Shown here one piece after another: positions 4,310 through 22,526 of a stretch of DNA of 32,000 nt. A program made the position numbers and the translations under genes. Numbering within the stretch: position 1 is the stretch's first letter; every line of letters starts with the position of its first letter. The notes below the pieces were generated by a model. The model was given only the letters and a program-made list of their open reading frames with translations, did no database searches and had not been told where the DNA came from. The stretch comes from Alkalilimnicola ehrlichii MLHE-1 (lineage in GTDB: Bacteria > Pseudomonadota > Gammaproteobacteria > Nitrococcales > Halorhodospiraceae). The stretch spans positions 1,320,001 through 1,352,000 of the forward strand of contig NC_008340.1 in NCBI RefSeq assembly GCF_000014785.1, read 5' to 3'.

Positions 4310-4383
4310 CGCAGGCTAGAGCTCTTCGTCATGCTCGCTGTGGTCGTCGTAGTGCGCCATTACTCCACCCGCTAACATCTAAG

Positions 4384-4418
4384 CATTTATCTGCCGTGCG
4401 CAGCATGGCGGATAAATG
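4384..4418. repeat. 12-bp-stem hairpin (CATTTATCTGCC / GGCGGATAAATG, 11-nt loop), possibly the terminal structure of the IS91-family remnant
   Basis: The inverted repeat is read directly from the sequence, with one G-T mismatch. It lies about 280 bp downstream of the IS91-like transposase stop, where IS91-family ori ends sit. Confidence 0.35.
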
Positions 4419-4698
4419 TCTGTTGGACTGAGCCGCCCTGCCCGGAGGCACGCGCTGGGTGGTCTTCTATATAAGGGGGAAAGTATCAGGCGCCCGTGGG
4501 GCACTTCGCACCTAGCGGCGCGAACCGAGTAATGCGTGGGTCTTCCTTGAGCGACCACCGCCGGTCTCCTCGAAGCTGGCCGTGAGTTCGTTCCCTTGAT
4601 ACTGCACCAGCCCTGCCCGAATTCCAACCGATGGCCCGCAAGGGACCGCGCCTTGCTCTGAAGGCGGTCTTCTCCACACGTTCAGACGGTGCGTCGAG

Positions 4699-6131: not shown

Positions 6132-6196
6132 GGTCGGTGCCTCGGATTGGCTCGGTGGAACGATGCGCATTCTAAGGCCATGAATGGCCTGTCAAT

Positions 6197-6307: not shown

Positions 6308-8623
6308 ATGACGGACACCTCCCCAGCCGCGGCGGGCGGCACCAGCGGCCGTTATCTCCCCAGCGAAGAGCAGCGCAGGCGCTGGCGCCGGTGGCGTCAC
6401 GTGAAGGACTGGATCAGCAAGGGCAGCATCGCCACCTTCGGGGTGGGGGTGATCGTCGCCCTAGGGCTGATCTTCGTTTACCTCTTCTCCGAGACCCTGC
6501 CCATCTTCGGCGACCCGGAGATCCGGCCGGTGTCCACCTACGCCGCCCCGGGCGGGACCGACTCCGGCCGCACCCTGCATACCGCCATGGAGCGCTACCA
6601 GGAGGTGGCGGTGCGCTTCACCGAGGAGGGAGGCGTCTACTTCTTCCGCCCCGGTAGCGGCGAGTTGCTGGACGAGTACCGCCTGAACCGGCCGGAGGGC
6701 GTGGAGGTGCGCAGCTTCGACGTGGCCGAGGCGCGCACGCGCCTGGTGGGTTACGGCTTGTCCGACGGCACCGCCATCATGGCCCGCCACGATTACGACG
6801 TCAGCTACACGGAAGGGCGGCGCGCCATCACCCCCAGCATCACCTACCCGGAAGGCGAGGGCGAGCCGCTGGAGGTCTTTGCCGAGGAGGGGCTGCCCCT
6901 GGACGCCATCACCGTGCAGCGCGGCCGGCGAGGCAGTGCGGTGGTGGCGGCCAACAACGAGGCCGAGGCGCTGCGCCTGGTGATGTTCGAAGAGGAGACG
7001 GACTTCCTCACCGGCGCGGCCACGGTGGAGCGCAAGATCTACGAACTGCCCTGGCCGGAGGCCGGCGTCGAGGTGACCCAGATCCTGCTGGACACCACCA
7101 TGCGCAACCTGTTCGTGGGCGGTGCCGACGGCCGGCTGCACTTTTTCGACGTCTCCAACCTCAACCGCCCCGAGCTGGTCAGCAGCCAGCGGGCCATCAC
7201 CGGCGAGGGCGCCGAGGTGACGGCCATGGACTTTCTGCTGGGGGCGGCGTCCATGATCGTGGGCGGGTCCGATGGCTCGGTGAGCCAGTGGATAATCACC
7301 CGGGGGGAGGATCGCAGCCGCAGCCTGACCGAGGTGCGCAGCTTCGACGCCCACGCCGCGCCCATCTCGGTGATCGCCCCCGAGCATGGCCGCAAGGGCT
7401 TTGCCACCGGCGCCGAGGACGGCACCGTGCAACTGGCTTACGCCACGTCGGCCCGGACCTTCTCGCGGATCGGTCTGGAGGGCGCCGACCGGGTGGACGG
7501 CCTGGCCATGGCGCCGCGCCAGGACGCCATGTTGGCGGTGGGGGGCGATGGCACCTTCCACTTCCTGGCGGTGGACAACCCCCACCCGGAGGTCTCCTTC
7601 TCCGCCCTCTGGCAGAAGGTCTGGTACGAGGGGCGCAACAACCCGGCCTACGTCTGGCAGTCCTCCTCGGCCACCCAGGAGTTCGAGCCCAAGTTTTCGC
7701 TGGTGCCGCTGACGGTGGGCACCTTGAAGGCGGCGTTCTACGCCATGCTCTTCTCCATCCCCATCGCGGTGCTGGGGGCCATCTATTCGGCCTACTTCAT
7801 GGCGCCGAAGATGCGCCAGATCACCAAGCCCACCATCGAGATCATGGAGGCCCTGCCCACGGTCATCCTCGGCTTCCTGGCCGGGCTGTGGGCCGCGCCC
7901 TTCTTCGAGCGCAACCTGCCGGCGGTCTTCTCCATCCTGATCGTCATGCCCATCGCCATGGTGTTCGCCGCCTACTTCTGGACGCGGGTGATGCCGGAGG
8001 GCATCCGCCGCCTGGCCCCGGCGGGCTGGGAGGCGGCGCTGCTGATCCCGGTGGTGCTGCTGGTGGGGTGGCTGGGGGTGACCGCCAGCCCCTTCCTGGA
8101 GCTGGCCTTCTTCGGCGGCGACATGCGCCAGTGGCTCACCGACCAGGGCATCAACTACGACCAGCGCAACGCCCTGGTGGTGGGGGTGGCCATGGGCTTC
8201 GCGGTGATCCCGACCATCTATTCCATCTCCGAGGACGCCATATTTAACGTGCCCAAACACCTGACCCAGGGCTCCCTGGCGCTGGGGGCGACCCCCTGGC
8301 AGGCGATGGTGACGGTGGTGCTGCTCACCGCCAGCCCGGGCATCTTCTCCGCCATCATGATCGGCTTCGGCCGCGCCGTGGGCGAGACCATGATCGTGCT
8401 GATGGCGACGGGCAACAGCCCGGTGGTCAACTTCAACCTCTTCGAGGGCATGCGCACCCTGTCGGCGAACATCGCCGTGGAGATGGGCGAGGCGGCGGTG
8501 GGCAGCACCCACTTCCGCATTCTCTTCCTGGCGGCACTGGTGCTCTTCCTGATGACCTTCGTGGTGAACACGGCGGCGGAGATCGTGCGCCACCGCCTGC
8601 GCAAGAAGTACAGCACCCTGTGA
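6308..8623 (+). CDS. pstC: phosphate ABC transporter permease PstC, long form with an N-terminal extracytoplasmic extension of roughly 450 aa
   Basis: The C-terminal ~300 aa is a typical PstC permease core (EFEPKFSLVPLTVGTLKAAFYAMLFSIPIAV...EDAIFNVPKHLTQGSLALGATPWQ...). The ATG at 6308 is preferred over the track's 6233 start, which falls inside the promoter region. Operon context is pstA, pstB and phoU. Confidence 0.9.
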   Translation: MTDTSPAAAGGTSGRYLPSEEQRRRWRRWRHVKDWISKGSIATFGVGVIVALGLIFVYLFSETLPIFGDPEIRPVSTYAAPGGTDSGRTLHTAMERYQEVAVRFTEEGGVYFFRPGSGELLDEYRLNRPEGVEVRSFDVAEARTRLVGYGLSDGTAIMARHDYDVSYTEGRRAITPSITYPEGEGEPLEVFAEEGLPLDAITVQRGRRGSAVVAANNEAEALRLVMFEEETDFLTGAATVERKIYELPWPEAGVEVTQILLDTTMRNLFVGGADGRLHFFDVSNLNRPELVSSQRAITGEGAEVTAMDFLLGAASMIVGGSDGSVSQWIITRGEDRSRSLTEVRSFDAHAAPISVIAPEHGRKGFATGAEDGTVQLAYATSARTFSRIGLEGADRVDGLAMAPRQDAMLAVGGDGTFHFLAVDNPHPEVSFSALWQKVWYEGRNNPAYVWQSSSATQEFEPKFSLVPLTVGTLKAAFYAMLFSIPIAVLGAIYSAYFMAPKMRQITKPTIEIMEALPTVILGFLAGLWAAPFFERNLPAVFSILIVMPIAMVFAAYFWTRVMPEGIRRLAPAGWEAALLIPVVLLVGWLGVTASPFLELAFFGGDMRQWLTDQGINYDQRNALVVGVAMGFAVIPTIYSISEDAIFNVPKHLTQGSLALGATPWQAMVTVVLLTASPGIFSAIMIGFGRAVGETMIVLMATGNSPVVNFNLFEGMRTLSANIAVEMGEAAVGSTHFRILFLAALVLFLMTFVVNTAAEIVRHRLRKKYSTL

Positions 8624-8692
8624 GCCCGGTGATGAGACAACGCCAACCCGGACCGTCCCGACCCGGACTGTCAACGAGAGGAATTTGAAGCG

Positions 8693-10360
8693 ATGCGCGA
8701 CTGGTTCAAGCGGGGTACGCCCTGGATCTGGCTCAACGCCGGTGCCGTGGCCATCTCTATCGTGATGGTGGTGGGGCTGATCGCCCACATCGCCTGGAAC
8801 GGCCTGCAGCACTTCTGGCCCAGCAACGTGGTGGCCTTCGAGTACAGCGAGCCGGGCCGGGAGACCCGACAGGTGCTGGGCGAGGTGGACGCGGCCGAGA
8901 CCCTCACCGCCCCGGCGGCCCGGGAGCGGGGCTTCGATGTGGCCGACGACGATGCCCTGGTCACCCGCTACCGGATCAAGCGGGGCAACCGGGACGTGGA
9001 CGGCCGGGACTTCGCCTGGTTCGCCGGCCCCAGCATGTCCGAGTGGAGCTACCCCGAGGACGTGGTGGTGATGGAGCGCCGCCAGTGGGGGGACTTCATC
9101 GGCTACCTGCGCGAGGTGCGGGTGGACGGCGAGGCGGTGGCCCAGGGCGATGAGGCCGCCTGGACCCGCTTCGATGAGCTCTTCCAGGACAACCGCGGCC
9201 GGATCGAGGAGATCGGCCATATCGAGCGGGTGGAGATCGGCGCGGTCAACGCGGCCATCGAGGAGCTGCGCCTGGCCCAGCGCCGCCTGGACGCCGACGA
9301 GACCCTTTCCGAAGAGGCGCGTGCCGAACAGGCCGCCGCCATTCAGGCGGACCGGGATCGCTGGGAGGAGGAGTACGAAGGGCTGGTGGAGCGCCGCGAC
9401 GAGCTGCTGCGCGAGGTGGCCCGTTTCTCGCTGCTGATGGAGACCGCCTCCGGCGAGCAGGTGGAGATCGCCATGGGCGACGTGGTGAAGCCCTGGCGGC
9501 CCAACGCCATGGGCGTGGGCGAGAAGATGGCCTTCTACGTGCGCGACTTCTGGGACTTCGTCACCGGCTACCCCCGCGAGGCCAACACCGAGGGGGGCAT
9601 CCTGCCGGCCATCTTCGGCACGGTGCTGATGACCATCGTCATGGCCATCTTCGTCACCCCCTTCGGGGTGCTGGCGGCCATCTACCTGCGGGAGTACGCC
9701 AAGCAGGGGCCGCTCACCCGCACCATCCGCATCGCGGTGAACAACCTGGCCGGGGTGCCCTCCATCGTCTTCGGCGTCTTCGGGCTGGGTTTCTTTGTCT
9801 ACTTCGTGGGCGGGGGTATCGACCAGCTCTTCTACGGCGAGCGGCTGCCGTCGCCCACCTTCGGCAAGGGCGGGGTGCTCTGGGCCTCGCTGACCCTGGC
9901 GCTGCTGACCCTGCCGGTGGTCATCGTGGCCACGGAGGAGGGGCTGTCCCGCATCCCCGGCTCCATCCGCCACGGGGCGCTGGCCCTGGGCGCCACTAAG
10001 AGCGAGATGCTCTGGCGCACGGTGGTGCCCCTGGCCACGCCGGCGATGATCACCGGGCTGATCCTGGCCGTGGCCCGGGCGGCGGGGGAGGTGGCGCCGC
10101 TGATGCTGGTGGGCGTGGTGAAGTTGGCCCCGCAGCTGCCGGTGAGCGGCGACTTCCCCTTCGTGCACCTGGAGCGCAGCTTCATGCACCTGGGCTTCCA
10201 CATCTTCGACGTGGGCTTCCAGAGCCCCAACGTGGAGGCTGGCCGGCCGCTGGTCTACGCCACCGCGCTGATCCTGCTGATGGTCATCGTGGTGCTGAAC
10301 CTCTCCGCCATCTCCATCCGCAACTACCTGCGCGAACGCTACAAGGCGCAGAGCGACTGA
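8693..10360 (+). CDS. pstA: phosphate ABC transporter permease PstA, long form
   Basis: 555-aa ORF with a GAGAGGA SD. The C-terminal permease core is typical ([48 protein letters not shown]) and it sits between pstC and pstB. Confidence 0.9.
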
Positions 10361-10448
10361 GGCCCGGACCGGGTCGACGAATCCGGTCGCCGGAAGGGCG
10401 GCCGCAGGGGCCGGAAGGCCCGATAACGAATTCACGGAGTACCGAGCC

Positions 10449-11306
10449 ATGGTGAGCACGATGATGAACGAACAGCAACAGGGTGGCATGACCCACGGCT
10501 ACAACGTCGAGGCGCTGAAAAACAAGCCCAAGTCCAAGCCGGGCAAGGCCACCGACACCTGCTTGGAGGTGAGCGACCTGCAGCTCTGGTACGGGCAGGA
10601 CAAGGTGTTGAAGGGCGTCGACATGGAGATCCCACGGGGGCGGATTACCGCCTTTATCGGCCCTTCCGGCTGCGGCAAGTCCACCCTGCTGCGCTGCTTC
10701 AACCGCATGAACGACCTGATCGACAACTGCCGCATCGAGGGCCACATCCGCATCGACGGCGAAGACATCTACGACCGCCGGGTGGACATCCCCGAGCTGC
10801 GCCGCCGGGTGGGCATGGTCTTCCAGAAGCCCAACCCCTTCCCCAAGTCCATCTACGAGAACGTGGCCTACGGCCTGCGCCTGCAGGGCGTGCGCAACCG
10901 GCGGGTGCTGGACGAGGTGGTGGAGCGCTCCCTCAAGCGCGCCGCTCTGTGGGACGAGGTGAAGGACCGCCTGCACGAGAACGCTTTGGGCCTGAGTGGC
11001 GGTCAGCAGCAGCGGCTGGTAATCGCCCGCGCCGTGGCGGTGGAGCCGGAGGTGCTGCTGCTGGACGAGCCCGCCTCCGCCCTGGACCCGCTGGCCACGC
11101 TGAAGATCGAGGAGCTGATGTTCGAGCTCAAGGAGGAGTACACCATCGCCATCGTCACCCACAACATGCAGCAGGCGGCCCGGGTGTCCGATTACACCGC
11201 CTTCATGTACCTGGGGGAACTGGTGGAGTTCAACGACACCGACACCCTGTTCACTACCCCGGCGAAGAAGCAGACCGAGGACTACATTACCGGTCGCTAT
11301 GGTTGA
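10449..11306 (+). CDS. pstB: phosphate import ATP-binding protein PstB
   Basis: Walker [13 protein letters not shown] signature LSGGQQQR, Walker B LLLDEP, and the PstB-typical NRMNDLI and [19 protein letters not shown] tail. Confidence 0.95.
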
Positions 11307-11398
11307 CCGGATAAGGGTCGCCGGGGAGGGGGCAGCGGAATCGAGGCCGCCAAGACAGAGGCACCAAGATAGGTTGGCCATTAGAGGGCGTCGAAGTC

Positions 11399-11529
11399 GG
11401 TGGTGCCGGGCTGCGGGGGCGGTTCGTCGTTCATGGGGTGTAGGCGGCATGGATGCCGCCTTCAAGCGTACAGGGATGTATTCACAGCGTCCCCATGAAC
11501 GACGAACCGCCCCGCAGTCCGGCACCACC
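11399..11529. repeat. 131-bp MITE/REP-like inverted-repeat element between pstB and phoU
   Basis: The arms are about 39 nt: GGTGGTGCCGGGCTGCGGGGGCGGTTCGTCGTTCATGGGG at 11399-11438 and its reverse complement at 11491-11529, with one mismatch and a 1-nt indel in a G run. The 52-nt centre holds a smaller hairpin (GGCGGCAT..ATGCCGCC). Confidence 0.7.
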
Positions 11530-11573
11530 CAACCCAAGCCGCCATAGCTACAGTCAATACAGGTCGAACCACC

Positions 11574-12296
11574 ATGGACAACAACTTTTTCCAGCAACAC
11601 ATCTCCCAACAGTTCAACGAAGAACTGGAAGACATCCTCCGGAAAGTCATGACCATGGGCGGCCTCGTCGAGCAGCAGCTCGCCGACGGCGTGGCGGCCC
11701 TGGTCGAAGGCGACAGCGCCAAGGCCGAAAAGGTGATCACCAGCGACTACCGGATCAACGACCTGGAAGTGGCGCTGGACGACGAGTGCAGCCACATAAT
11801 CGCCCGCCGTCAACCCACCGCCACCGACCTGCGTCTGCTGATCGCCGTGATCAAGGCTATCACCGACCTGGAGCGCATGGGCGACGAGGCCGAGCGCATC
11901 GGCCGCATGGCCCTGCACCTGCTGGAGCGGGACCGCAACCACAGCCCCGTCGACGAACTGGCCGTGCTGGGCGAGCATGTCCGCCAGATGCTGCGCGGCG
12001 CTCTGGACGCCTTCGCCCGCATGGACCCCGACCAGGCCGTCCGCGTTGCGCAGCAGGACATCCAGGCGGACAGCCAGTACGAACAGATCATGCGCGAATT
12101 GATGAACTACATGGCCGAGGAACCGGCCTCCATCCCGCGCATCATGGACATCGTCTGGTCCGCCCGCGCCCTGGAGCGCATCGGCGACCGCTCACGCAAC
12201 ATTTGTGAATACGTCGTCTACTGCGTCAAGGGCAAGGACGTGCGCCACACCAGCTTCGACCAGATGGCGGAGCAGGCCACGGGGGACCGGCGTTAG
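11574..12296 (+). CDS. phoU: phosphate signalling complex protein PhoU
   Basis: MDNNFFQQHISQQFNEELEDILRKVMTMGGLVEQQL...ARRQPTATDLRLLIAVIKAITDLERMGDEAERI matches the PhoU pattern closely. Confidence 0.95.
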   Translation: MDNNFFQQHISQQFNEELEDILRKVMTMGGLVEQQLADGVAALVEGDSAKAEKVITSDYRINDLEVALDDECSHIIARRQPTATDLRLLIAVIKAITDLERMGDEAERIGRMALHLLERDRNHSPVDELAVLGEHVRQMLRGALDAFARMDPDQAVRVAQQDIQADSQYEQIMRELMNYMAEEPASIPRIMDIVWSARALERIGDRSRNICEYVVYCVKGKDVRHTSFDQMAEQATGDRR

Positions 12297-12465
12297 TCGC
12301 GAACCCACGCGGAGAGAGTCAGTCGTTGCCGTCCGGGCAATGAGGCAGCGGCAGCGCCGTGCCCGTCCGGTGCTGGACCGCACAGGGGCATGGTAGATCC
12401 ATGGCTGTTATGCCACAGGTGGTCGGCCCGACGGGGCGGTACGGGGCCCGAGCCGGTCATTTCCG

Positions 12466-13476
12466 CTACAGGCCGTACTTGGGCGGGAAGTAGGACAGCG
12501 GGGGCTCGCGGTTCAGCCACTCCTCGGCGAGTTCTTCGGCTTCGGCGATTTCATCTTCGGTCATGCGGTCGCGTTCTCGCCCAAGAATGCCCTCGGCCGT
12601 GCTATCTCGCGTCTCTTCATAAACCGCGTGAAGTATGGCCCAACCCTTGACCGTGTCATCTGCGTCGTCCGGGCAGAAATCCGCCCAGGTATTATCCAGG
12701 TAGCACCAGCCAACGGCGAGACGACCGCTGATATGGCCATGTCGGGAACTTTTTTTCGTCCATTTCCAGTCTTCGTTATACCGCTCCTGATCCCGCAAGG
12801 CTAGGGACAGGTTGTACATCCCCGGGGCGTAGCCCTGCTCGGCGGCCTTGCGGAACCAGGGCTCGGCGGCCTTGACGTCTTCCAGCGGCGGGGGCCATTC
12901 GCCGGAGCGCTCCTGAATACGACTCGCCCACAGGTCTTGTGCCTGTGGGAGGCCCGCCCTGGCAGCGTTGCGTAACCAGTTCCGACCCTCTTCCACCTCC
13001 TCCAGCGCAACATAGATCGAATACAGTGCAAGCATGGCATCCGGATCCCCTTCCTCGGCTTTGGGGAGTTCCTGGCCCAGGGCCATTTCTGCCCAGGTGT
13101 CATGCTCTTCGGGGCAGATGTCGGCCAGCTCGCAGATCATGCCCCAATTCAGACGAAGCATGGCGTAGGGATCCCCGCCCTCCGCCGCGCGGTGGTACCA
13201 GTCGATGGCCTCGTGGGACATGCCACGGTCCATAAAGCGGTAGATCTCGCCAAGGGTGTACATGGACTCAACATCGCCGGCCTCGGCGGCCTTTTCCAGG
13301 TGGTGGATGGCCACGCTGCGCCAGCGGATGCCGTACAGGCGCATGCCTTCTTCCTTGGCCTGTTGTTGCTCGGCATCGAGCTCTGGGGATGTTGTGTCTT
13401 CGCCTTTGTTGGCTTGAGCCGTCCCGGCCCATAAGCCAACGATCAAGAGGAAAACCATTGTTCTTGTGCAGGGCAT
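12466..13476 (-). CDS. periplasmic Sel1-like repeat protein, putative T6SS immunity protein (distal/orphan copy)
   Basis: The track ORF 12466..13803 is over-extended. The ATG at 13476 gives the signal peptide MPCTRTMVFLLIVGLWAGTAQA; alternative starts are 13524 and 13458. SLR units are present (AIDWYHRAAEGGDPYAMLRL, GRNWLRNAARAGLPQAQ, AEPWFRKAAEQGYAPGMYNL). It is a paralog of 15156..16169. Confidence 0.8.
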   Translation of the reverse strand: MPCTRTMVFLLIVGLWAGTAQANKGEDTTSPELDAEQQQAKEEGMRLYGIRWRSVAIHHLEKAAEAGDVESMYTLGEIYRFMDRGMSHEAIDWYHRAAEGGDPYAMLRLNWGMICELADICPEEHDTWAEMALGQELPKAEEGDPDAMLALYSIYVALEEVEEGRNWLRNAARAGLPQAQDLWASRIQERSGEWPPPLEDVKAAEPWFRKAAEQGYAPGMYNLSLALRDQERYNEDWKWTKKSSRHGHISGRLAVGWCYLDNTWADFCPDDADDTVKGWAILHAVYEETRDSTAEGILGRERDRMTEDEIAEAEELAEEWLNREPPLSYFPPKYGL

Positions 13477-13534
13477 TACCGATACCTCTGTTGGGCCTTC
13501 GCAAACCGCCCGTTGTCGTCGCATGCCTTCCTTT

Positions 13535-15151
13535 CTACTGAATGTGGCGGGAAAGCCAGCCGGCATTCTGTCTGTATTTCCTTTGCATATCGGATTGCTC
13601 AGGGGTAGCGCGGCCCCCTGATATGAACTGATCCAGCCGCCCTCGGTTCTCGGCATACGCATCGGCCCTCGATGCGTCGGTAGGCTGTCCGTCTCGGGCC
13701 ATGCGCACCACGGCCTTTTCAAACAACTTTTGCGCCGGGTTCGGGTGCTCTGCGGAGAACTCGCGCCGGGGCCCGTAGACGCCGGCCAGGACGCCGGAGA
13801 CAATCCATTGCAGGCAGTTGAGGATCGCCCGCTGGTGGAATCCTCGTGCTTGCTCCACGTTGTATTGGTTCTCCTCCACCTCGAACGCCTGCGGCTGACT
13901 GGTCAGGGTATAAAGCAGCGGCCCGAGGGCCTCGGGCGGCAGTTGGCGCACCCAGGCGCGCAGTTGCTGGACGCGCTTGTGGTGTTCCCGACTGGCCTCC
14001 GGGTCATACCGGAGGTTGGGCGGTTCCTCGGCGGCGAGTTCGTAGGCGATCCGGCTGGCCATGTCCCGCTCCCGGGTGAACCATTCGATCAGCTGGCGCA
14101 GGCGGTGGGTGCCGCGCAGCAGGAGCAGGGCGGGTTCGACCAGGGTGATGGCGGCGAGGTAGGCCAGGCGGCTCATCTCCTCGAAGGCGTCTTCGTCGAT
14201 CCAGTCGACGCGCTCGTAGCCGACCTCCACCAGCGCCTGGTGCATCATGGCGAGCCAGAGGTCGAGGTGGCGGGTGTCGAGGGCCAGGCGCACGCTGCCC
14301 CCGCCGCCGACGCCGAGCACCAGGCGCAGGGAGGCGTGCAGCACGAAGCGGCCGTTGTGCAGGCCGAGCCGGAAGGCGGCCTCGCCGCCGACCCCGACGC
14401 GTACTTCGGGGTTGATCTCGGCACGGGTCAGGGTTTTCCACTGGCGGGCCTCGTCCCGGGCGTAGCCCGCGCGGTCGATCTCGGCCATGGCCTGGTAGCG
14501 CGGCAGGCGCGCGAGCAGGTTCGCCGGCGGCTGCCAGAGCAGACGGCAGTGGTTGTGGCCGGCCAGTCCGGTGCCGGCGAAGGCCTCCAGTCGGGCATCG
14601 ACGCCGTCGCGCTCCACGGGGGCGAGGCCGTTGACGGCGAGACGGCCCCCGGCGGTGTCGAGCCCGACGCCGCCGCCCAGCGCCACGGAGACGGCGGCAT
14701 GGCCGTGGAGCACGGGCTCGATGTGCAGGCAGTAGCGGCCGATGGAGCGGGCATCGGGGTGATTGGCATCAAGGCCGAAGGGGACGATGACCGGCTCCGC
14801 CTTGGCGGGATCGGGCAGCTGGATGGGCGCGAGGGCGATCTCGCCACGGCCGAAGTCGAAGGCGTGCTGGCCCTGCGTTCGCAGCGGCGTCGTCGCGCCG
14901 TTGGCCCCGGGCTCCACGGTGGGAACGATGACGTGACCGTCCAGGGCCAGGCTGGGGGTGACCGCGAAACTCTGCCCGGATTGGCCGGGACCGGTGCCGA
15001 CGGCGTCGTCATGGCGGGCGGTGATCCCGATGCGGACGCCGTTTCCGGAGGCATCGTGCTCCGGGTCGGCCTGCGCCAGGGATTCGGGCAGGCGGCAACT
15101 ATTCCAAGGGAGCCAACCGGTCCGGGCGGTGACCTGCCAAAACAGGAGCAT
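13535..15151 (-). CDS. orphan effector C-terminal module, homologous to the C-terminal ~45% of the upstream T6SS effector and lacking the N-terminal region
   Basis: 538-aa ORF that starts 4 nt after the stop of the proximal immunity gene. From about residue 12 it aligns with the effector (LAQADPE.. vs VAQAEPE..). About 830 nt (14042-14872) is nearly identical to 16688-17518, and the tail is diverged. Confidence 0.75.
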   Translation of the reverse strand: MLLFWQVTARTGWLPWNSCRLPESLAQADPEHDASGNGVRIGITARHDDAVGTGPGQSGQSFAVTPSLALDGHVIVPTVEPGANGATTPLRTQGQHAFDFGRGEIALAPIQLPDPAKAEPVIVPFGLDANHPDARSIGRYCLHIEPVLHGHAAVSVALGGGVGLDTAGGRLAVNGLAPVERDGVDARLEAFAGTGLAGHNHCRLLWQPPANLLARLPRYQAMAEIDRAGYARDEARQWKTLTRAEINPEVRVGVGGEAAFRLGLHNGRFVLHASLRLVLGVGGGGSVRLALDTRHLDLWLAMMHQALVEVGYERVDWIDEDAFEEMSRLAYLAAITLVEPALLLLRGTHRLRQLIEWFTRERDMASRIAYELAAEEPPNLRYDPEASREHHKRVQQLRAWVRQLPPEALGPLLYTLTSQPQAFEVEENQYNVEQARGFHQRAILNCLQWIVSGVLAGVYGPRREFSAEHPNPAQKLFEKAVVRMARDGQPTDASRADAYAENRGRLDQFISGGRATPEQSDMQRKYRQNAGWLSRHIQ

Positions 15152-15155
15152 TCCG

Positions 15156-16169
15156 CTACAGGCCGTACTTGGGCGGGAAATAGGACAGCGGGGGCTCGCG
15201 GTTCAGCCACTCCTCGGCGAGTTCTTCGGCTTCGGCGATTTCTTCGTCGCTGAGAAGATCCGAAAACTCCTCCATATACCAGCGAGCATCATCATGGCGA
15301 GTTTCTTCGTACGCTGCATGAAGGATGGCCCAGCCCTTGATCGGATCGCTGTCATTGGGGCAGTAAGGCCGGTCCTCGGGCTTGAGATGGCACCGACCGT
15401 AAGTCACTCGATTATTTACATAGCCATGCTCGGACCCGCGCACGACCCATTTCCATGAGCCCTCGACGTCGTCCTGTCGCCAGAGATTGCCGGCCAGGTT
15501 ATTCATAGCCGGGGCATACCCTTGTTCGGCCGCCTTGCGGAACCAGGGCTCGGCGGCCTGCACGTCTTCCAGCGGCGGGGGCCACTCGCCGGAGCGTTCC
15601 TGAATACGACTCGCCCATAGGTCTTGTGCCTGTGGGAGGCCCGCCCTGGCAGCGTTGCGCAACCAGTTCCGACCTTCTTCAACATCTTCTAGCGCAACAT
15701 AGATCGAATACAGTGCAAGCATGGCATCCGGATCCCCTTCCTCCGCTTTGGGGAGTTCCCGGTCCAGAGCCATTTCTGCCCAGGAGTCATGCTCTTCGGG
15801 GCAGATGTCGGCCAGCTCGCAGATCATGCCCCAATTCAGACGGAGCATGGCGTAGGGATCCCCGCCCTGCGCCGCGCGGTGATACCAGTCGATCGCTTCG
15901 CGGGACATACCCCGGTCCAGCAGCCGGTTGGCCTCGCCCAGGTAGTACATGGCCTCGACATCACCGGCCTCGGCCGCTTTTTCCAACGGGGGCTGCATGT
16001 CGATCCATTCATGCAGGCCCCACAGGCGCATGCCTTCTTCCTTGGCTTGATGGAGGGGTTCGTCAAGGCTGAGCTCAGAGGTGGCACTGGCCGGTATCAA
16101 CGAACTCCCCACTGCTATCAGAAATGCTGGAAGCCAGAAACGTGTGACGCTTTTGCCGATGAGAGACAT
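15156..16169 (-). CDS. periplasmic Sel1-like repeat protein, putative cognate T6SS immunity protein (proximal copy)
   Basis: The ATG at 16169 has an AAGGA SD and gives a signal peptide (MSLIGKSVTRFWLPAFLIAVGSSLIPASA). The track start at 16211 is a GTG. It has SLR units and lies immediately downstream of the effector stop at 16220. Confidence 0.8.
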   Translation of the reverse strand: MSLIGKSVTRFWLPAFLIAVGSSLIPASATSELSLDEPLHQAKEEGMRLWGLHEWIDMQPPLEKAAEAGDVEAMYYLGEANRLLDRGMSREAIDWYHRAAQGGDPYAMLRLNWGMICELADICPEEHDSWAEMALDRELPKAEEGDPDAMLALYSIYVALEDVEEGRNWLRNAARAGLPQAQDLWASRIQERSGEWPPPLEDVQAAEPWFRKAAEQGYAPAMNNLAGNLWRQDDVEGSWKWVVRGSEHGYVNNRVTYGRCHLKPEDRPYCPNDSDPIKGWAILHAAYEETRHDDARWYMEEFSDLLSDEEIAEAEELAEEWLNREPPLSYFPPKYGL

Positions 16170-16219
16170 GGCGCTGTTCCTTTGCTTGCGCAATTCAAAA
16201 TACGGTCCCACTGTAAAAC

Positions 16220-17611
16220 TCAGTTCAGCGGGGTAATGTGTCGGGAGAGGGTTCTTACCGCACGCTCATACCGTTCGCCGATCGCGCCGACGCGGCTGGT
16301 CGGTGAGGCTCCAGGCATAAAGTCATCCAGACGCTTGCGGTTTTCCGCATAAGCATCGGCCCTGGATTCGTCGGTAGGCTGTCCATCTCGGCCCATGCGC
16401 ACCACGGCCTTCTCGAACAATTTCTGCGCCGGGTTGGGCTGCTCGGCCGAGAACTCGCGCCGCGGCCCGTAAACGCCATTCTGGGCGCCAGAGACGATCC
16501 ATTGCAGGCAATTGAGGATGGCCCGTTGGTGGAATTCTCGTGCTTGTTCCGCGTTGTATTGGTCGCCTTCCACCTCGAACGCCTGCGGCCGACTGGTCAG
16601 GGTGTATAACAGCGGCCCCAGGGCCTCGGGCGGTAGCTGGCGCACCCAGGCGGCAATGGCGTCCCGTTGCGGGTCGTTGACGATGGTGTAGGCGATCCGG
16701 CTGGCCATGTCCCGGTCCCGGGTAAACCACTCGATCATCTGGCGCAGTCGGTGGGTGCCGCGCAGCAGGAGCAGGGCGGGTTCGACCAGGGTGATGGCGG
16801 CGAGATAGGCCAGGCGGCTCATCTCCTCGAAGGCGTCTTCGTCGATCCAGTCGACGCGCTCGTAGCCGACCTCCACCAGCGCCTGGTGCATCATGGCGAG
16901 CCAGAGGTCGAGGTGGCGGGGGTCAAGCGCCAGGCGCACGCTGCCCCCGCCGCCGACGCCGAGCACCAGGCGCAGGGAGGCGTGCAGCACGAAGCGGCCG
17001 TTGTGCAGGCCGAGCCGGAAGGCGGCCTCGCCGCCGACGCCGACGCGCACCTCGGGGTTGATCTCGGCGGCGGTCAGGGTTTTCCACTGGCGGGCCTCGT
17101 CCCGGGCGTAGCCCGCGCGGTCGATCTCGGCCATGGCCTGGTAGCGCGGCAGGCGCGCGAGCAGGTTCGCCGGCGGCTGCCAGAGCAGACGGCAGTGGTT
17201 GTGGCCGGCCAGTCCGGTGCCGGCGAAGGCCTCCAGTCGGGCATCGACGCCGTCGCGCTCCACGGGGGCGAGGCCGTTGACGGCGAGACGGCCCCCGGCG
17301 GTGTCGAGCCCGACGCCGCCGCCCAGCGCCACGGAGACGGCGGCATGGCCGTGGAGCACGGGCTCGATGTGCAGGCAGTAGCGGCCGATGGAGCGGGCAT
17401 CGGGGTGATCGGCATCAAGGCCGAAGGGGACGATGACCGGCTCCGCCTTGGCGGGATCGGGCAGCTGGATGGGCGCGAGGGCGATCTCGCCACGGCCGAA
17501 GTCGAAGGCGTGCTGGCCGCGCAATCGCAACACGACCCGCGAGCCGTCCTGCCCGCGGGGCCACGGTGGCGGTGATGCCCAGCTCGTCGAGAGCGAGGCT
17601 GGGGGCCACAC
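16220..17611 (-). CDS. T6SS effector, C-terminal (toxin-domain) reading frame; it continues 17415..19508 after a frameshift
   Basis: The frame opens with a GTG at 17611. From GQHAFDFGRGEIALAPIQL onward it is collinear with the orphan module 13535..15151. The paralog shows the ancestral gene was one continuous frame. Confidence 0.7.
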   Translation of the reverse strand: MWPPASLSTSWASPPPWPRGQDGSRVVLRLRGQHAFDFGRGEIALAPIQLPDPAKAEPVIVPFGLDADHPDARSIGRYCLHIEPVLHGHAAVSVALGGGVGLDTAGGRLAVNGLAPVERDGVDARLEAFAGTGLAGHNHCRLLWQPPANLLARLPRYQAMAEIDRAGYARDEARQWKTLTAAEINPEVRVGVGGEAAFRLGLHNGRFVLHASLRLVLGVGGGGSVRLALDPRHLDLWLAMMHQALVEVGYERVDWIDEDAFEEMSRLAYLAAITLVEPALLLLRGTHRLRQMIEWFTRDRDMASRIAYTIVNDPQRDAIAAWVRQLPPEALGPLLYTLTSRPQAFEVEGDQYNAEQAREFHQRAILNCLQWIVSGAQNGVYGPRREFSAEQPNPAQKLFEKAVVRMGRDGQPTDESRADAYAENRKRLDDFMPGASPTSRVGAIGERYERAVRTLSRHITPLN

Positions 17612-19508
17612 TGACCGTCCGGCCGCCGGCGTTGCCCCCGGTGTCGATGCCGGCGGTGTCCTGGTAGCGGGCGGTCAGGCCGATGCGGGCACCGGTTCCG
17701 GAAGCGGCTGTCTCCGGTTCGGCCTGCGCCACGGGTCCGGGCCGGCGCAGCCACAGGGGTGCCTCCCCGGACAGCGCCCGGTCGCGCCGGTCGGGCTCGG
17801 CGTATGCGCCGGCCAGCAGGCGCAGGAGCTGCGCCGGGCCACTGGCATCGAACAGGCGCATGGGGTGGTTGAGCGGGTCGGCGAACAGGATCCGGCGCAG
17901 GCGCCGGCCCCACTCCTCCCGGGCGCTGTCGTCGGCAAGGCGGTCGATGACCAGGCCCTGGTGGTCGAGGTCGTGGAAGAAGCGTTCCGGCTCGAACAGC
18001 CCGAGCGGCTCGCTGTGCCAGTCGGGGTTCCAGTCGAGCCGCCGGCAGCCGCGTCGGGTGAGCCACCCGGTCAGTGCCGTGTCGGGCAGGGAGCGGGGCT
18101 CGGTGACCGTGCGGCTGTCGTGCGCGATGGCGGCATCGCGCTGGCGGGCGTAGTGGGGGCGGGTCTCGCCCAGCTGGTGCAGGCTCAGGTGATCGAGGGT
18201 GCGCTGCCGACCGGGGCCGCTGAACTCGCGCAGGGGGAAGTCGGCGCGCACCAGCCGGTGGATCGGGGGCGGGCGGTAGGGTTCGGGGTCGCGGATGTCG
18301 TCGGGGCCCAGGTCCCAGTGCAGGACGCGCCTCGGGCGCGTGCGGTCCACCCGGCGCCGGGCCGTGCGGTAGAGGCGGTCCATGCGCTCGCGCAGCCGGT
18401 CGAACCGCGCCTGCTCGTCGGTGAACAGGAAGATGGGCAGCGGGGTGGCCCGGCCCGTGCCCTGTTCCCACTCCCTGAGCCGCGTGTCCACGTCCTCGCG
18501 CAAGGCGTCGAGTTCGTCCAGGGTCGCGAAGTAGCGGGCCACGTAGTCCACGCCGTCGGCGAAGCCGGCGTCCGGGTCCTCAGCCAGCGCCAGCTCGGGG
18601 GTGGCCACGCCCAGCCCGGCCAGCTCGATGAGACTGTCGATGTAGTGGCGGTAGTCCTGCTCCAGTTGCGGGATGTAGTGCTCGATCACGGAGGCGATCT
18701 CGCAGCGTTCGACGGCCTCTGGTACCGGGTCCTGGTCGCAGAGCGCCACATGCCGGCGGTATTGCTCCAGGATCTTATGGAGCGGCCGCGTCGGTGGCAG
18801 GCCCTGACCCTGTTCCAGGTGGGACCGAGCACCCTGGAAAGCAAGCTCCCGCCGCCGGTGATAGCGCTGCAGCGCCTCGCGGATGCGCGCCTCGCTGTCG
18901 CCGTGGACCAGGGCGCTATCGACGACATAGCCGGCCTTCTCGGCCTTGTCCAGGCCGCGTTGATAAAGGGCCTGAAGTGCGTCGAGATGGTCGTTGCTCT
19001 CGTGGATGCGTGCCGGTTCCGGGCATTGGGTCGGTACGGCCGAAGGCATTGAATGATCGCCGGACCAGGATTGCGAGGTGCTCACGCTGGTGGTGCCCTG
19101 GAAAGGCACGCCGTCCACCACCCGTTGCAGCAGCGTGTCCGGGGCCTCGTCCTGAAGGGCGGCGAGCTGCTGGAGGGTCTGCGCGAACCGTTGGCGGTCC
19201 GCTTCCCCCAGGAAACTGACCGGATGCGCTGGCAGGAAGCTGTCCAGCACGCCCGCCTCCTCGGACAGCCGCCGGTTGCGCTCGTCGCGGTCGTCCACGG
19301 CGGCGATGTCGGCCAGCTTGTCGGCCGCGTGGTGCATCGCGGCGGCGGCTGTGGCGTTGAGCAGCCAGAACTCGCCGGAGCCGGTGAGATAGACGATGTC
19401 CGCCCACAGGAACGTTGCGCACAGGGGGCGCGGGTCTTCGTGGAAGAGGTCATCGTCGCGGCCGCGCGGTCCCGCGGGCCAGACCTGGGGGGCGATGGAG
19501 TCGGTCAT
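17415..19508 (-). CDS. T6SS cargo effector, N-terminal reading frame (697 codons); family unrecognised
   Basis: The ATG at 19508 overlaps the adaptor gene's stop as ATGA. Homology to the orphan module begins in this frame (AQAEPETAASGTGARIGLTARYQD...SLALDE) and then jumps to the other frame near 17544-17565. The last ~50 codons (RLAGRVAIARPARLRLRP...) look like out-of-frame noise. Confidence 0.7.
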   Translation of the reverse strand: MTDSIAPQVWPAGPRGRDDDLFHEDPRPLCATFLWADIVYLTGSGEFWLLNATAAAAMHHAADKLADIAAVDDRDERNRRLSEEAGVLDSFLPAHPVSFLGEADRQRFAQTLQQLAALQDEAPDTLLQRVVDGVPFQGTTSVSTSQSWSGDHSMPSAVPTQCPEPARIHESNDHLDALQALYQRGLDKAEKAGYVVDSALVHGDSEARIREALQRYHRRRELAFQGARSHLEQGQGLPPTRPLHKILEQYRRHVALCDQDPVPEAVERCEIASVIEHYIPQLEQDYRHYIDSLIELAGLGVATPELALAEDPDAGFADGVDYVARYFATLDELDALREDVDTRLREWEQGTGRATPLPIFLFTDEQARFDRLRERMDRLYRTARRRVDRTRPRRVLHWDLGPDDIRDPEPYRPPPIHRLVRADFPLREFSGPGRQRTLDHLSLHQLGETRPHYARQRDAAIAHDSRTVTEPRSLPDTALTGWLTRRGCRRLDWNPDWHSEPLGLFEPERFFHDLDHQGLVIDRLADDSAREEWGRRLRRILFADPLNHPMRLFDASGPAQLLRLLAGAYAEPDRRDRALSGEAPLWLRRPGPVAQAEPETAASGTGARIGLTARYQDTAGIDTGGNAGGRTVSVAPSLALDELGITATVAPRAGRLAGRVAIARPARLRLRPWRDRPRAHPAARSRQGGAGHRPLRP

Positions 19509-20296
19509 GTGCCGGCCTCCCTGCCCGCGGCACCCGGTTTGGAACGGGCTGTCTGATCCTTCGCGCCGCCGGGTTTCGCCAATCGGCGGCGCCACTCGTC
19601 GGGGAGGTGAATGCCCGCCTCACGAAGGGTTCGGAGCTGCTCAAGCATGTCGGGCGGGACGGCCTCCAGCGGAATTCCAAGGTCCTGCCCAAGCCACCAT
19701 GCCAGCGGGGCGTCGTCCAGCGCCCGGCACTGGTTGTGATCGAGAAACGGTGGGCTGGTCGGCCCGCGCGGCTCGGCCCCGACCCAGCAGCGCCAACCGG
19801 CGGTGGGCGTCGGTGTATAGACCGGTCCGAGTACCTGCAGCCACAGGTCAAAATGGGTGCGCGGCGCGCTGGCCAGGAGGGCGGTCCAGGCCTCCGGTTG
19901 CTGCACCTGTACCAGCGACTGCCCTCCGTCGGCGTCGTCCATCACGGCAAGCCGCTGCATCTGCTCGACGAAGGGCTCCAGGGCACCGCCGGGCGGCCGG
20001 CACATCCAGCCCAGCGCCAGCTCGCGGCAAAGCATTTCGGCCTGTTCGAACGCGGGGCTGCCCGGTGTGAGCCGCGCGGCCCAGGGCCCGTAAGCTGACA
20101 ATGAACGGAGTTCCGTCCCCGCGAACAGGGGAACGATGTCGGTAGCGCCATCAAGGGTGTAGAGGGCAAGGGCCTCTTCCGGGATGCGGTGGGGGTCGAT
20201 GATCAGCCCCACCCATTCCCCGTCGGCGCCATCGCCGGGGCCTTCGACGGTGTGGCTTCGCTCACCAATCCGGGTCAGCCACTCGTGCACGGGCAT
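19505..20296 (-). CDS. DUF4123-type T6SS effector adaptor/chaperone (Tap/Tec-like)
   Basis: 263-aa ORF directly after vgrG and directly before the large effector. The pattern GLIIDPHRIPEEALALY...IVPLFAGTELRSLSAYGPWAARL...GWMCRPPG resembles the DUF4123 N-terminal core. The call rests on position and motifs only. Confidence 0.65.
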   Translation of the reverse strand: MPVHEWLTRIGERSHTVEGPGDGADGEWVGLIIDPHRIPEEALALYTLDGATDIVPLFAGTELRSLSAYGPWAARLTPGSPAFEQAEMLCRELALGWMCRPPGGALEPFVEQMQRLAVMDDADGGQSLVQVQQPEAWTALLASAPRTHFDLWLQVLGPVYTPTPTAGWRCWVGAEPRGPTSPPFLDHNQCRALDDAPLAWWLGQDLGIPLEAVPPDMLEQLRTLREAGIHLPDEWRRRLAKPGGAKDQTARSKPGAAGREAGT

Positions 20297-22395
20297 TCCT
20301 CCCTGGAACAGTTACCGGACTCCGTGTCCTTGCCACACAATTGAATGCGGGCGGCCTCGCTGCGTGCATAGCGCTCGGGGTCCGGGCCAACGCCCTTTAC
20401 GACTCGTGGGGGCGGTTCGGCCGGCACGTGCCCCGGCCGTGCGGGCGTCTGGGCCCGCTGTGCACTCCCCGAGCCCGGGCTGCCTCCGGAGTTTATACGG
20501 ATGCCGGGGCCGCTGAGGGTGATGCCGGAGGGGTCGAGCTTGATGAAGCTGCCGCCGGCCCGGAGGGTGATCTCGGCACCGGCCTCCAGGATCAGCTTGA
20601 CCCCGGCGGCATGGTGGATCTCGTGCCCAGCCTCCACCAAAAGGCACTCGCCTTGGTATTGATGGAGCGTGCCCTCCACGCTGAGATGCTGATCCCCACC
20701 GGTGCGCTCGCGCCGCTCGCCCTGCACGGTGAGGTGCTCGTCGCCGTGGATCTCCGCGAGCCGGTCGCCGTGGACGCCCAGGTGGCTGTGCCGGCCGATG
20801 GTCTCGGAGCGGTCGTTGCGGGTGTGCAGGTCGAGATCGCGCTGGGCGTGCAGGTGGATGCGCTCGGCGTCGTGGGCGTCCTCGAAGTGCAGTTCGTTGT
20901 AGCCCTCGCCGCCGTGGCTGCGACTGCGCAGCACGCTGCGGGTCTTGTGCTCGGGCAGCGGATAGGGCGGGGTGTTGTGGCCATCGTAGACCCGGCCGGT
21001 GATCACCGGCTGGTCCGGGTCGCCGGCCATGAAGTCGACAATCACCGCATGGCCCACCCGGGGCAGGAACAGCCCGCCGTAGCCGGGCCCGGCCCAGGGC
21101 TGGGCGACGCGCAGCCAGGCGCTGGCGTGCTCGTCGTCGGCGGCGTAGCGGTCCCAGGGGAAACGGACCTTGACCCGGCCGTGCTCATCGCAATGGATCG
21201 CCTCCCCCTCGGGGCCCACCACCCGGGCGATCTGCGGGCCCTCCATCCGCGGGCCGGCGCCCGGGTCGTGGGGCGGGCGCCAGTCGGTGTCGGCGGGCAC
21301 GAGGGTGAGCCGGTTGTTCAGCCGGGCCACGCCTGCCTCGTCCTCGTCGGCCAGCAGGATCGCGTCCTCTTCCAGCGCGGCGGGCTGCCGGGCGGTATGA
21401 AGGGCGCCGACCACCTGCCAGTCGCGGCGCCGTTCGCCGGCGTCGTGGCCATCGAGGGTGAAGCGCACGCCGGGGCGCAGCTCGGCAATATCGCTTTCGG
21501 CCTCGGCGGTGTGGGCGTCGGCGCGCAACTGGCCGAGCCGGACCCGGGTGAAGGCCCGGCCGCTGGTCTCGCTCTTGAACCGGCCGGGGTGGTCGTAGTG
21601 CTCGTAGGGGGTGGCCCCCGACTCGGCGCCATCATGCCCGGCTGCCCCATCCACCGCCTGCGCGTGGATCAGCCGCCGCCGGGGGGTGCGGAAATGGCGA
21701 TCCTCCAGGGTGGCGCGCTGCGCGCGCACCCGGTGGGCCTCGCGCAGGGTGTGCACATGGCGGGCCTCGGCCACGCCGCCGGCGCGGGGGCGGTAGGCCC
21801 ATTCGCCCGCCTGCCCCAGCCCCCGGTGGGTATCGGTGAACACCGGGCGGTGGCCGCCCTCGGGGGTGTCGTCGAACTCGTGGAAGTAGACGATGCCCAA
21901 CTCGGCGGCAAGCCGCTGGACAAAGGCCAGGTCGCTCTCCCGGTACTGCACCAGGTACTCGCGGGGCTCGGGGCGGTGGCGGACGGCGAAGGCGGCGTCG
22001 GTGATGCCATGTTCCGAAAGCAGGGTGTGGAGGACATCCAGCGGGCAGGCGTGCTGGAAGATGCGGGCGTTGCGGCGCAGGGCAAGGCGCCAGAGGGCGG
22101 GGCGGACGACCAGTTGGTAGGCGGTGCGCCGGGCGCCGGTGCGGCCGCGCTGGAACTCGGTGACCACGCCGTGGACCCGGCGGGTGACGCGGCCGGCCTG
22201 ATGGATGGCCAGTGCCAGGCCCTGCTCAAGCCAGTCGTCGGGGGCGAGATCGGGCGAGGGGTGGACCAGGTCCAGGGTCAGCGTGAAGGGCCGGGAGAGG
22301 TGCTCATCCAGGGTGAACCCGGTGACCCGGGGCAGGTCGGCCTCTGCCGCGCCGGGGCGCGAGAGGGCGAGGTACAGTCCGTTGTCTATTGGCAT
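20275..22395 (-). CDS. vgrG: type VI secretion system spike protein VgrG
   Basis: gp27/gp5-like VgrG hallmarks: FTLDEHLSRPFTLTLDL, YLVQYRESDLAFVQRLAAELGIVYFHEF, PRMEGPQIARVVGPEGEAIHCDEHGRVKVRFPWDR, WLRVAQPWAGPGYGGLFLPRVGHAVIVDFMAGDPDQPVITGRVYD, plus beta-helix repeats. The ATG at 22395 with a GGAG SD is preferred over the track start at 22422. Confidence 0.9.
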   Translation of the reverse strand: MPIDNGLYLALSRPGAAEADLPRVTGFTLDEHLSRPFTLTLDLVHPSPDLAPDDWLEQGLALAIHQAGRVTRRVHGVVTEFQRGRTGARRTAYQLVVRPALWRLALRRNARIFQHACPLDVLHTLLSEHGITDAAFAVRHRPEPREYLVQYRESDLAFVQRLAAELGIVYFHEFDDTPEGGHRPVFTDTHRGLGQAGEWAYRPRAGGVAEARHVHTLREAHRVRAQRATLEDRHFRTPRRRLIHAQAVDGAAGHDGAESGATPYEHYDHPGRFKSETSGRAFTRVRLGQLRADAHTAEAESDIAELRPGVRFTLDGHDAGERRRDWQVVGALHTARQPAALEEDAILLADEDEAGVARLNNRLTLVPADTDWRPPHDPGAGPRMEGPQIARVVGPEGEAIHCDEHGRVKVRFPWDRYAADDEHASAWLRVAQPWAGPGYGGLFLPRVGHAVIVDFMAGDPDQPVITGRVYDGHNTPPYPLPEHKTRSVLRSRSHGGEGYNELHFEDAHDAERIHLHAQRDLDLHTRNDRSETIGRHSHLGVHGDRLAEIHGDEHLTVQGERRERTGGDQHLSVEGTLHQYQGECLLVEAGHEIHHAAGVKLILEAGAEITLRAGGSFIKLDPSGITLSGPGIRINSGGSPGSGSAQRAQTPARPGHVPAEPPPRVVKGVGPDPERYARSEAARIQLCGKDTESGNCSREECPCTSG

Positions 22396-22526
22396 GCCGG
22401 CTCCGTGGCAGTGCAAGTCCATTCAATCCTTGGCCGTTCCTATGCTAGGGCGAGCGGTTCGATGCCGTCAATCACTCGCGTGCGCCTGCGCTGGGGTGGG
22501 AGTGGGCGTCGGGGCCGCCCATCGGC

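Follow-up and report, generated by a model that had tools for sequence, protein, structure and literature searches.

A likely auxiliary type VI secretion array of Alkalilimnicola ehrlichii MLHE-1, with an adaptor-associated two-domain effector and a tandem duplicate of its putative toxin end and Sel1 gene

We analysed a 32,000-nucleotide (nt) stretch of the genome of Alkalilimnicola ehrlichii MLHE-1 (CP000453), hereafter the window, which was placed by exact-sequence look-ups. It contains an auxiliary type VI secretion system (T6SS) island, Mlg_1140-1145, set between phoU and a Yip1/cpx-like block. This island is likely a T6SS auxiliary array with a two-domain effector loaded by an adaptor, in which the toxin end of the effector gene and the following Sel1-repeat gene have been tandemly duplicated. 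Context gives good support to the T6SS reading. The cargo-effector family is new and uncharacterised, whereas the logic of the array has already been described in other systems.

The island consists of six tightly packed genes, all on the minus strand, in the order vgrG, DUF4123 adaptor, effector, Sel1-A, orphan C-domain open reading frame (ORF) and Sel1-B. The first-pass annotation of the window had read this arrangement from the list of ORFs, and the junctions that it described are present in the sequence: vgrG and the adaptor gene overlap by 22 nt, the adaptor stop and the effector start form ATGA, and the ATG of the orphan (15151) lies 4 nt past the Sel1-A stop. In agreement with that description, the island is flanked on one side by pstC-pstA-pstB-phoU on the plus strand and on the other by a Yip1/LTXXQ/response-regulator block, and no T6SS core gene lies within the window. 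The only promoter-like match in the island, a sigma-70-like TTGACG-18-TAGCAT (22442..22471, minus strand; consensus match only), is found just upstream of vgrG. No promoter-like site was found ahead of the orphan and no terminator-like site inside the island. Judging from the sequence, co-transcription of all six genes is plausible.

The vgrG gene (20275..22422) codes for a T6SS spike protein of 715 residues with Phage_GPD, Phage_base_V and Gp5_trimer_C domains (PF05954, 264 bits, E = 1.9e-78; also PF04717 and PF22178), and its product scores 542.8 bits against the curated spike model TIGR03361 (cut-off 186; E = 7e-163). The closest VgrG outside Alkalilimnicola is that of Thioalkalivibrio, with 72% identity, followed by those of Halomonadaceae with ~50-57%. 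The next gene (19505..20296, Mlg_1144) codes for a 263-residue adaptor of the Tap/Tec type, identical to ABI56493, which belongs to the DUF4123 family (PF13503, 32.5 bits for a gathering cut-off of 25.8). Of the surveyed loci that extend far enough upstream of the effector, most keep the order vgrG-DUF4123-effector. In Thioalkalivibrio sp. ALE18 (locus L005, 10001-16628), the gene of the 72%-identical VgrG is followed directly by that of a 1130-residue protein of the VasX_N family and then by a gene for 361 residues, with no DUF4123 gene between them. Thus, similar spikes carry unrelated cargo.

The first-pass annotation had stated that a genome devoid of any T6SS core cluster would speak against its reading. 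MLHE-1 does have a core cluster elsewhere in its genome, the locus CP000453A (Mlg_0040-0059), where the stretch Mlg_0043-0059 includes COGs of TssB, C, E, F, G, J, K, L, M, FHA, Hcp and PAAR (Boyer et al. 2009 supplement). Our literature search found no main-text link between Alkalilimnicola and T6SS, that supplement being the sole mention. According to the same table, the main cluster has a VgrG fragment of its own, followed by genes for 299, 1099 and 443 residues (Mlg_0040-0043; Boyer et al. 2009 supplement). These genes may constitute a third adaptor/effector/immunity set of similar sizes; the set was not recovered as a relative in the word-indexed search.

The effector gene (16220..19508) had initially been taken as a single frame from 19508 down to 16220. 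However, this stretch counts 3289 nt, i.e. 3n+1, and the frame is broken by one extra C in a run at 17557..17560 (CCCC where CCC is expected), which was located by comparison with the orphan copy. In the window, the first frame ends at 17415, giving a 697-residue ORF (19508..17415, Mlg_1143), and the C-terminal part is found in another frame (16220..17611). Removal of one base yields a protein of 1095 residues, of which 1093 are identical to the annotated protein of a re-sequenced MLHE-1 genome. The latter reads VARGQDG across the site, and T605N (codon 605, window position 17695) is the second difference. A second strain also has an intact orthologue of 1095 residues. Since the gene is intact in both of these genomes, the break is most likely an error of the 2006 assembly and not biology, and we rejected a programmed frameshift or a true pseudogene on the same grounds. 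A decaying pseudogene locus in MLHE-1 would agree with the presence of the break in both the window sequence and the original annotation, but it is very improbable given the two intact genes and the nature of the site, a G+C-rich homopolymer run, which is a typical spot for base-calling errors. Mlg_1143 and what we presume to be Mlg_1142 would then be one gene, and the annotation should be corrected by joining them.

The proteins encoded after the effector and after the orphan are Sel1-A (337 residues; 15156..16169, Mlg_1141, identical to ABI56490) and Sel1-B (336 residues; 12466..13476), which are 69% identical to each other in a mosaic pattern. Their scores against the Pfam Sel1 profile are below threshold (25.1 and 27.4 bits for a cut-off of 30.7), and phmmer matches to solved Sel1-repeat proteins of the PDB (E = 3.8e-12 to 7e-8, over residues ~55-260) place both in this family. 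Their N-termini are hydrophobic and signal-peptide-like, ending in ASA/AQA. The initial description of both as Sel1-repeat proteins holds. A Sel1 gene directly follows the effector gene in every surveyed locus. Position and N-termini together point to Sel1-A and Sel1-B as putative periplasmic immunity proteins. Sel1-like immunity to periplasm-acting T6SS effectors is known for PldA/PldB of Pseudomonas aeruginosa (Tli5) and VgrG4 of Klebsiella (Sel1E). Those antidotes are secreted Sel1-repeat proteins encoded directly after the effector, often in several tandem copies. Unlike in those systems, the partner toxin here has neither a phospholipase D (PLD; HxKxxxxD) nor a lipase motif and belongs to no known family.

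The orphan ORF (13535..15151, Mlg_1140, ABI56489) codes for 538 residues, the first 19 of which derive from the junction. The remainder is 80% identical to effector residues 588-1091, in line with the earlier observation that the orphan matches only the C-terminal part of the effector. The two copies are parts of longer direct repeats with a spacing of 2646-2694 nt, namely unit A, comprising the 3' half of the effector gene and Sel1-A (15151..17747), and unit B, comprising the orphan and Sel1-B (12461..15094). The blastn alignment of the two cassettes has an E-value of 0, so the match is not due to chance. The first-pass annotation had likened the orphan to the C-terminal toxin modules of Rhs and CdiA loci. 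It is not a different toxin, as in such arrays, but a tandem duplicate of the C-domain with a core that is nearly identical at the nucleotide level.

The two units have diverged very unevenly, as determined with sliding windows of 60 nt. A block of ~780 nt in the toxin core (16730..17508, matching 14084-14862 in the orphan) is 98-100% identical, apart from two 60-nt windows at 90-95%. In comparison, the linker is 58-75% identical, and identity falls to 30-60% in the toxin tail, in the stretch between the genes and at the N-terminus of Sel1. Within the Sel1 genes, the core is 90-97% identical and the region of residues ~225-310 is 43-67% identical. In protein terms, the variable blocks correspond to toxin residues ~940-957 and ~1050-1095 and to Sel1 residues ~30-60 and ~225-310. 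Uniform divergence after duplication cannot give such a mosaic, which implies that gene conversion acted between the two copies, that other alleles were imported, or both. The ~780-nt block may itself serve as a substrate for homologous recombination or gene conversion. The notion of a polymorphic-toxin array therefore holds only in part: an orphan C-terminal module with its own Sel1 gene is present, but the variable parts are the linker, the tail and parts of Sel1, not the whole C-domain.

The island has a paralogue elsewhere in the genome. Strain CP184336.1 has a second array at the ksgA/phosphoenolpyruvate-carboxylase locus (L001, 9981-16950), with genes for an effector (1100 residues), a Sel1 protein, an orphan (543 residues) and another Sel1 protein. 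It is ~93-95% identical to the effector-Sel1-orphan-Sel1 part of the island, with homology extending from 20 nt upstream of the effector ATG to 18 nt beyond the Sel1-B stop, and the paralogue is also found in MLHE-1 (ABI55621, near Mlg_0270). As this second array has no vgrG and no adaptor gene, its effector would have to use the adaptor and VgrG of the island in trans. A 51-residue ORF overlaps the effector start at this locus. For the four toxin and four Sel1 copies of the species, the nearest relatives differ segment by segment. We also looked for co-variation between toxin tails and immunity proteins, and abandoned it as a line of evidence because with four cassettes on contiguous DNA segments it is inseparable from single recombination tracts.

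The word-indexed search had retrieved only six close clusters, whereas a full scan with hidden Markov models (HMMs) yielded 422 clusters at 50% identity (E <= 1e-3). The family is represented in Halomonadaceae, Alkalilimnicola, Pseudomonas chlororaphis, Marinobacter, Vibrio ruber and Entomomonas, and the named proteins from P. chlororaphis, V. ruber, Marinobacter and Entomomonas are annotated just as 'hypothetical' or 'LysM domain-containing'. We surveyed 17 genome loci, with a bias toward Halomonadaceae that stems from the alignment used. They show VgrG-DUF4123-effector followed by one to at least ten Sel1 genes, with occasional orphan C-domains; thus, the number of cassettes does vary among relatives, as the first-pass annotation had suggested should be surveyed. 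Halomonas sp. M4R5S39 has the simple arrangement VgrG-DUF4123-effector-Sel1. A metagenome contig (L003) syntenic with the island at phoU has the same order plus what remains of a duplicated C-domain, 65 residues long. In Halomonas sp. I1, the module is located inside the main T6SS cluster, between hcp and tssBCEFG, with two Sel1 genes that are 89% identical to each other and a 358-residue orphan that is 71% identical to its own effector by BLASTP, or 91% over the shared C-domain columns. Onishia niordana has a 539-residue orphan within a run of Sel1 genes.

Some further loci stand out. In Halomonas salifodinae IM328 (L018, 13110-23027), one effector gene is followed by a tandem run of at least ten Sel1 paralogues that reaches the end of the locus examined, which makes for an unusually long array of putative immunity genes. 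In Halomonas koreensis (L020, 9059-13623), a 628-residue ORF consists of an unrelated N-terminal part of ~300 residues and a partial C-domain, followed by two Sel1 genes and, at the contig end, by an N-domain fragment; this atypical order may record a rearrangement. In Halomonas olivaria (L021) and H. sulfidaeris ATCC BAA-803 (L022), many short ORFs take the place of intact effector and Sel1 genes, and in the latter vgrG and the adaptor gene are fragmented likewise; these loci are either decayed or error-rich assemblies.

The array could also have arisen by displacement, in the manner of Rhs/CdiA loci or the auxiliary clusters of Vibrio cholerae. An incoming module made of an effector 3' end and an immunity gene would have recombined into the effector gene and pushed the old toxin end and its antidote downstream, and the orphan would be the ancestral form. 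Displacement would account for the poorly matching blocks (30-60% identity) at the toxin tail, between the genes and at the N-terminal end of Sel1, and for the segment-wise differences in nearest neighbours among the four cassettes. In addition, the orphan of O. niordana is nearer to the C-domain of another species (82%) than to its own effector (78%), and displacement is documented in V. cholerae (PMC5361080). Nevertheless, we consider this origin unlikely here. The orphan belongs to the same toxin family as the effector, and their toxin cores are 98-100% identical at the nucleotide level. Comparisons of orphans with the effectors of their own locus or lineage gave 88-91% identity for Alkalilimnicola, 91% for Halomonas sp. 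I1 and 78-82% for Onishia, and the orphans of the first two are nearest to those effectors. Duplication followed by import of alleles fits all the data, and duplication and displacement do not exclude each other.

The T6SS clusters of V. cholerae, whose aux-1 and aux-2 effectors depend on DUF4123 adaptors, are the closest precedent for this island. They similarly comprise vgrG, a cargo effector gene and an immunity gene, followed by extra immunity genes and some effector 3' ends. These orphan immunity genes and retained 3' ends behind cargo effectors were described by Kirchberger et al. 2017 (PMC5361080), with homologous recombination as the process that shuffles modules; the authors favoured displacement and rejected duplication. 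For one V. cholerae auxiliary effector, the VasX/VasW entry of the Tke5 paper points to a DUF4123 adaptor (PMC13133200). In contrast with the unrelated immunity types brought together by displacement in V. cholerae, the island has paralogues of one family, each most similar to its neighbours. Its orphan toxin part is a full-length, intact C-domain, and its effector is neither TseL nor VasX. In Pantoea agglomerans, tandem and intra-chromosomal duplications in vgrG islands generate paired and orphan effector/immunity copies (bioRxiv 10.1101/2023.03.17.533219). There, the effector families are Rhs and Tre1/Tri1, whereas here the duplication breakpoint lies in the inter-domain linker of an adaptor-dependent cargo effector, which gives a clean toxin-domain ORF. 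Duplication with conversion fits the island better than displacement. These two precedents weaken the idea that array logic of this kind is a novelty in adaptor-dependent effectors outside the Rhs group.

Comparison with Rhs and CdiA loci shows both likenesses and differences. As in those loci, the orphan has no delivery region, a putative immunity gene of its own comes after it, and it has a tract of homology in common with the main gene; this identity stretch could mediate toxin switching. In contrast, the orphan belongs to the same toxin family as the main gene (80% identity, core 98-100% at the nucleotide level), and only the linker and the tail vary. Rhs/YD and CdiA domains are absent from the effector, as are the demarcation motifs PxxxxDPxGL and VENN. 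Furthermore, it would be cargo carried via an adaptor, whereas Rhs and CdiA toxins depend on a PAAR/Rhs cage or a two-partner secretion filament.

Another explanation for the orphan is that it is a non-functional by-product that is never translated or used, so that only the second Sel1 gene, which provides extra immunity, is under selection. The orphan has no promoter of its own, no clear Shine-Dalgarno sequence and no loading domain. Orphans of relatives are truncated (358 residues) or reduced to the 65-residue remnant, and Sel1 genes accumulate without toxin fragments. The ratios of non-synonymous to synonymous substitution rates (dN/dS) against the paralogous array, which are confounded by mosaic recombination, are 0.23 for the N-domain, 0.32 for the main C-domain, 0.24-0.39 for the Sel1 genes and 0.82, i.e. 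near neutral, for orphan versus orphan. With that reservation, constraint is stronger on the loaded effector than on the orphans. Conversely, full-length orphans (538-543 residues) are present at three places despite ~10% divergence, namely in the island of MLHE-1 and in the island and the second locus of CP184336.1, and the 4-nt spacing after the Sel1-A stop permits translational coupling. Gene conversion from the main gene could also hold the orphan ORF open without selection. On this evidence, we regard the by-product explanation as somewhat unlikely.

We then consider the effector itself. The N-terminal (residues 1-585) and C-terminal (residues 661-1095) regions score as separate units across 150 relatives, and many short proteins match the C-terminal region only. 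The N-domain (17754..19508), presumed to be the part loaded via the adaptor and VgrG, forms a separate HMM unit in 69 of the 150 relatives listed, and its AlphaFold2 (AF2) model is mostly helical with good predicted local distance difference test (pLDDT) scores. The linker of residues ~586-660 (17528..17753) is predicted to be disordered, with pLDDT values below 50 over residues 574-665 of the full-length model. The orphan homology starts within it, at residue 588, which fits the boundary between delivery and toxin parts that had been proposed from the homology breakpoint. The putative toxin domain (16220..17527) consists of a glycine-rich beta region, modelled with low confidence, followed by a confidently modelled helical part. 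The overall pLDDT is 72 for the full-length effector and 65 for the orphan.

No known family was found for the effector. No match was found in Pfam, in NCBIfam or among PDB sequences (the latter searched with three profiles), and Foldseek searches of the PDB with the two AF2 models gave none at E <= 0.001. Across 82 non-redundant C-domains, conservation is confined to positions with G, W, P, L, A or F, and no D, E, H, K, S or C is conserved except E961, at 76%. The C-domain contains no GxSxG, HxKxxxxD or HExxH motif, and the absence of the first two, together with the lack of Pfam matches (DUF2235, DUF3274 and PLD were sought), places it outside the Tle1-5 phospholipases. The best 19-residue hydropathy window reaches 1.6, at residues 897-917 only, indicating at most one marginal hydrophobic helix. 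Many relatives of the effector have an N-terminal LysM domain, which helps to load T6SS effectors onto VgrG (PMC10673891). We also looked for fusions of the C-domain to PAAR, Rhs or VgrG; the large relatives that match by the C-domain only show LysM heads alone.

The lack of conserved catalytic-type residues, the glycine-rich beta region, the LysM heads of many relatives and the periplasmic antidotes would agree with a toxin that acts non-enzymatically on the envelope or membrane from the periplasm and is blocked by direct binding of Sel1. We favour this mode of action, but only tentatively, with the envelope as the target that we infer. The C-domain might also be an enzyme, e.g. a peptidoglycan- or lipid-acting hydrolase of a new fold. 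The LysM heads of relatives point to the cell wall, and soluble periplasmic immunity proteins are typical of enzymatic periplasm-acting T6SS effectors of the Tae, Tge and Tle families. We regard an enzyme as doubtful, however, given the conservation pattern of the 82 C-domains, in which E961 alone stands out, the lack of lipase, PLD or metalloprotease motifs and the lack of sequence or structural matches to solved enzymes.

The BTH_I2691/VasX/Tke5 effectors (PMC13133200) resemble the effector in several respects. They have ~1000-1100 residues, are encoded after vgrG and a DUF4123 adaptor gene, in some members start with LysM, and have several domains including a beta-rich part, with a possibly non-enzymatic, membrane-directed action. 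However, the effector lacks the multiple transmembrane segments or colicin-like features of that group, and its immunity candidate is a soluble periplasmic Sel1 protein in place of a small membrane protein. Neither the effector nor at least eight diverse relatives matched NF041559 or PF20249 (VasX_N) in the Pfam and NCBIfam searches. Kinship with VasX or MIX effectors was rejected: hhalign gave a probability of 0.06% against the VasX_N protein of Thioalkalivibrio sp. ALE18, and no MIX-like motif is present.

We therefore propose the following scheme for the island. The adaptor would place the effector, by its N-domain, on the VgrG tip of the Mlg_0043-0059 T6SS. The C-domain would be the toxin and would act in the periplasm or envelope of the target cell, perhaps in a non-enzymatic manner by membrane or envelope disruption, and each Sel1 protein would bind and neutralise the adjacent toxin variant. 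The orphan, having no loading domain, would not be delivered as such. The array would have been born by tandem duplication, and its mosaic would be kept by gene conversion and recombination with other alleles. It would provide extra immunity specificities and serve as a reservoir of tails, one of which could pass to the loaded effector, along with a matching antidote, by recombination in the identical block.

Several points weigh against this scheme. The ClpV and TssA COGs are not listed for the MLHE-1 core cluster (Boyer et al. 2009 supplement), which speaks against taking T6SS activity in this strain for granted. The blocks less than 50% identical make duplication alone insufficient and require import of foreign alleles as well, and the mosaic recombination blurs the dN/dS comparison. 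For the non-enzymatic reading, the missing conserved residues were judged from alignments at 20-30% identity, alongside an AF2 beta region of low confidence. Moreover, the immunity proteins of pore-forming T6SS toxins described so far are usually embedded in the membrane (PMC13133200), unlike periplasmic Sel1 proteins. Finally, we infer secretion, toxicity, the immunity role of Sel1 and expression of the orphan all from context.

The window contains other genes outside the island. A separate secreted Sel1-repeat protein (5259-6170, minus strand; Pfam Sel1, 86.6 bits) is encoded next to pstC. The syntenic metagenome contig has this gene at the equivalent position, so we assign it to the backbone, outside the T6SS island. 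Two minus-strand ORFs, 6461-10489 (1342 residues) and 10284-11978 (564 residues), were considered as further effectors and discarded as antisense artefacts of the G+C-rich plus-strand genes pstC, pstA, pstB and phoU. A stretch of low G+C content (1500-4500; 0.56 compared with ~0.68) contains four minus-strand genes, one of which (1557-2156) codes for a NERD nuclease-related protein that PADLOC also matches weakly to PglW; for the other three, neither Pfam nor PADLOC gave a match. This stretch may be a small foreign or defence islet. More generally, a plasmid or mobile origin was rejected, as a megablast search of PLSDB gave no match.

Effector-immunity islands, arrays of orphan immunity genes, retained effector 3' ends and duplications inside T6SS islands are thus already known. 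A bolder proposal, which we consider a clear outsider, is that the C-domain has a toxin fold that is new, acts in the periplasm by non-enzymatic means and is countered by soluble Sel1 proteins, and that, at the same time, the ~780-nt block is a built-in recombination switch. If so, RecA-mediated exchange or deletion would swap the specificity-determining tail of the effector together with the matching Sel1 gene, and the second, vgrG-less array would be a further reservoir of alleles. Toxin switching, so far shown for Rhs and CdiA, would then extend to an adaptor-dependent cargo effector. The island in any case provides a new family for testing, with its two-domain build, a candidate toxin domain in which no fold or motif was recognised, and Sel1 proteins that form a matching family. 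Its mosaic duplicates are natural chimeras that could be used to map the toxin segments that set immunity specificity.

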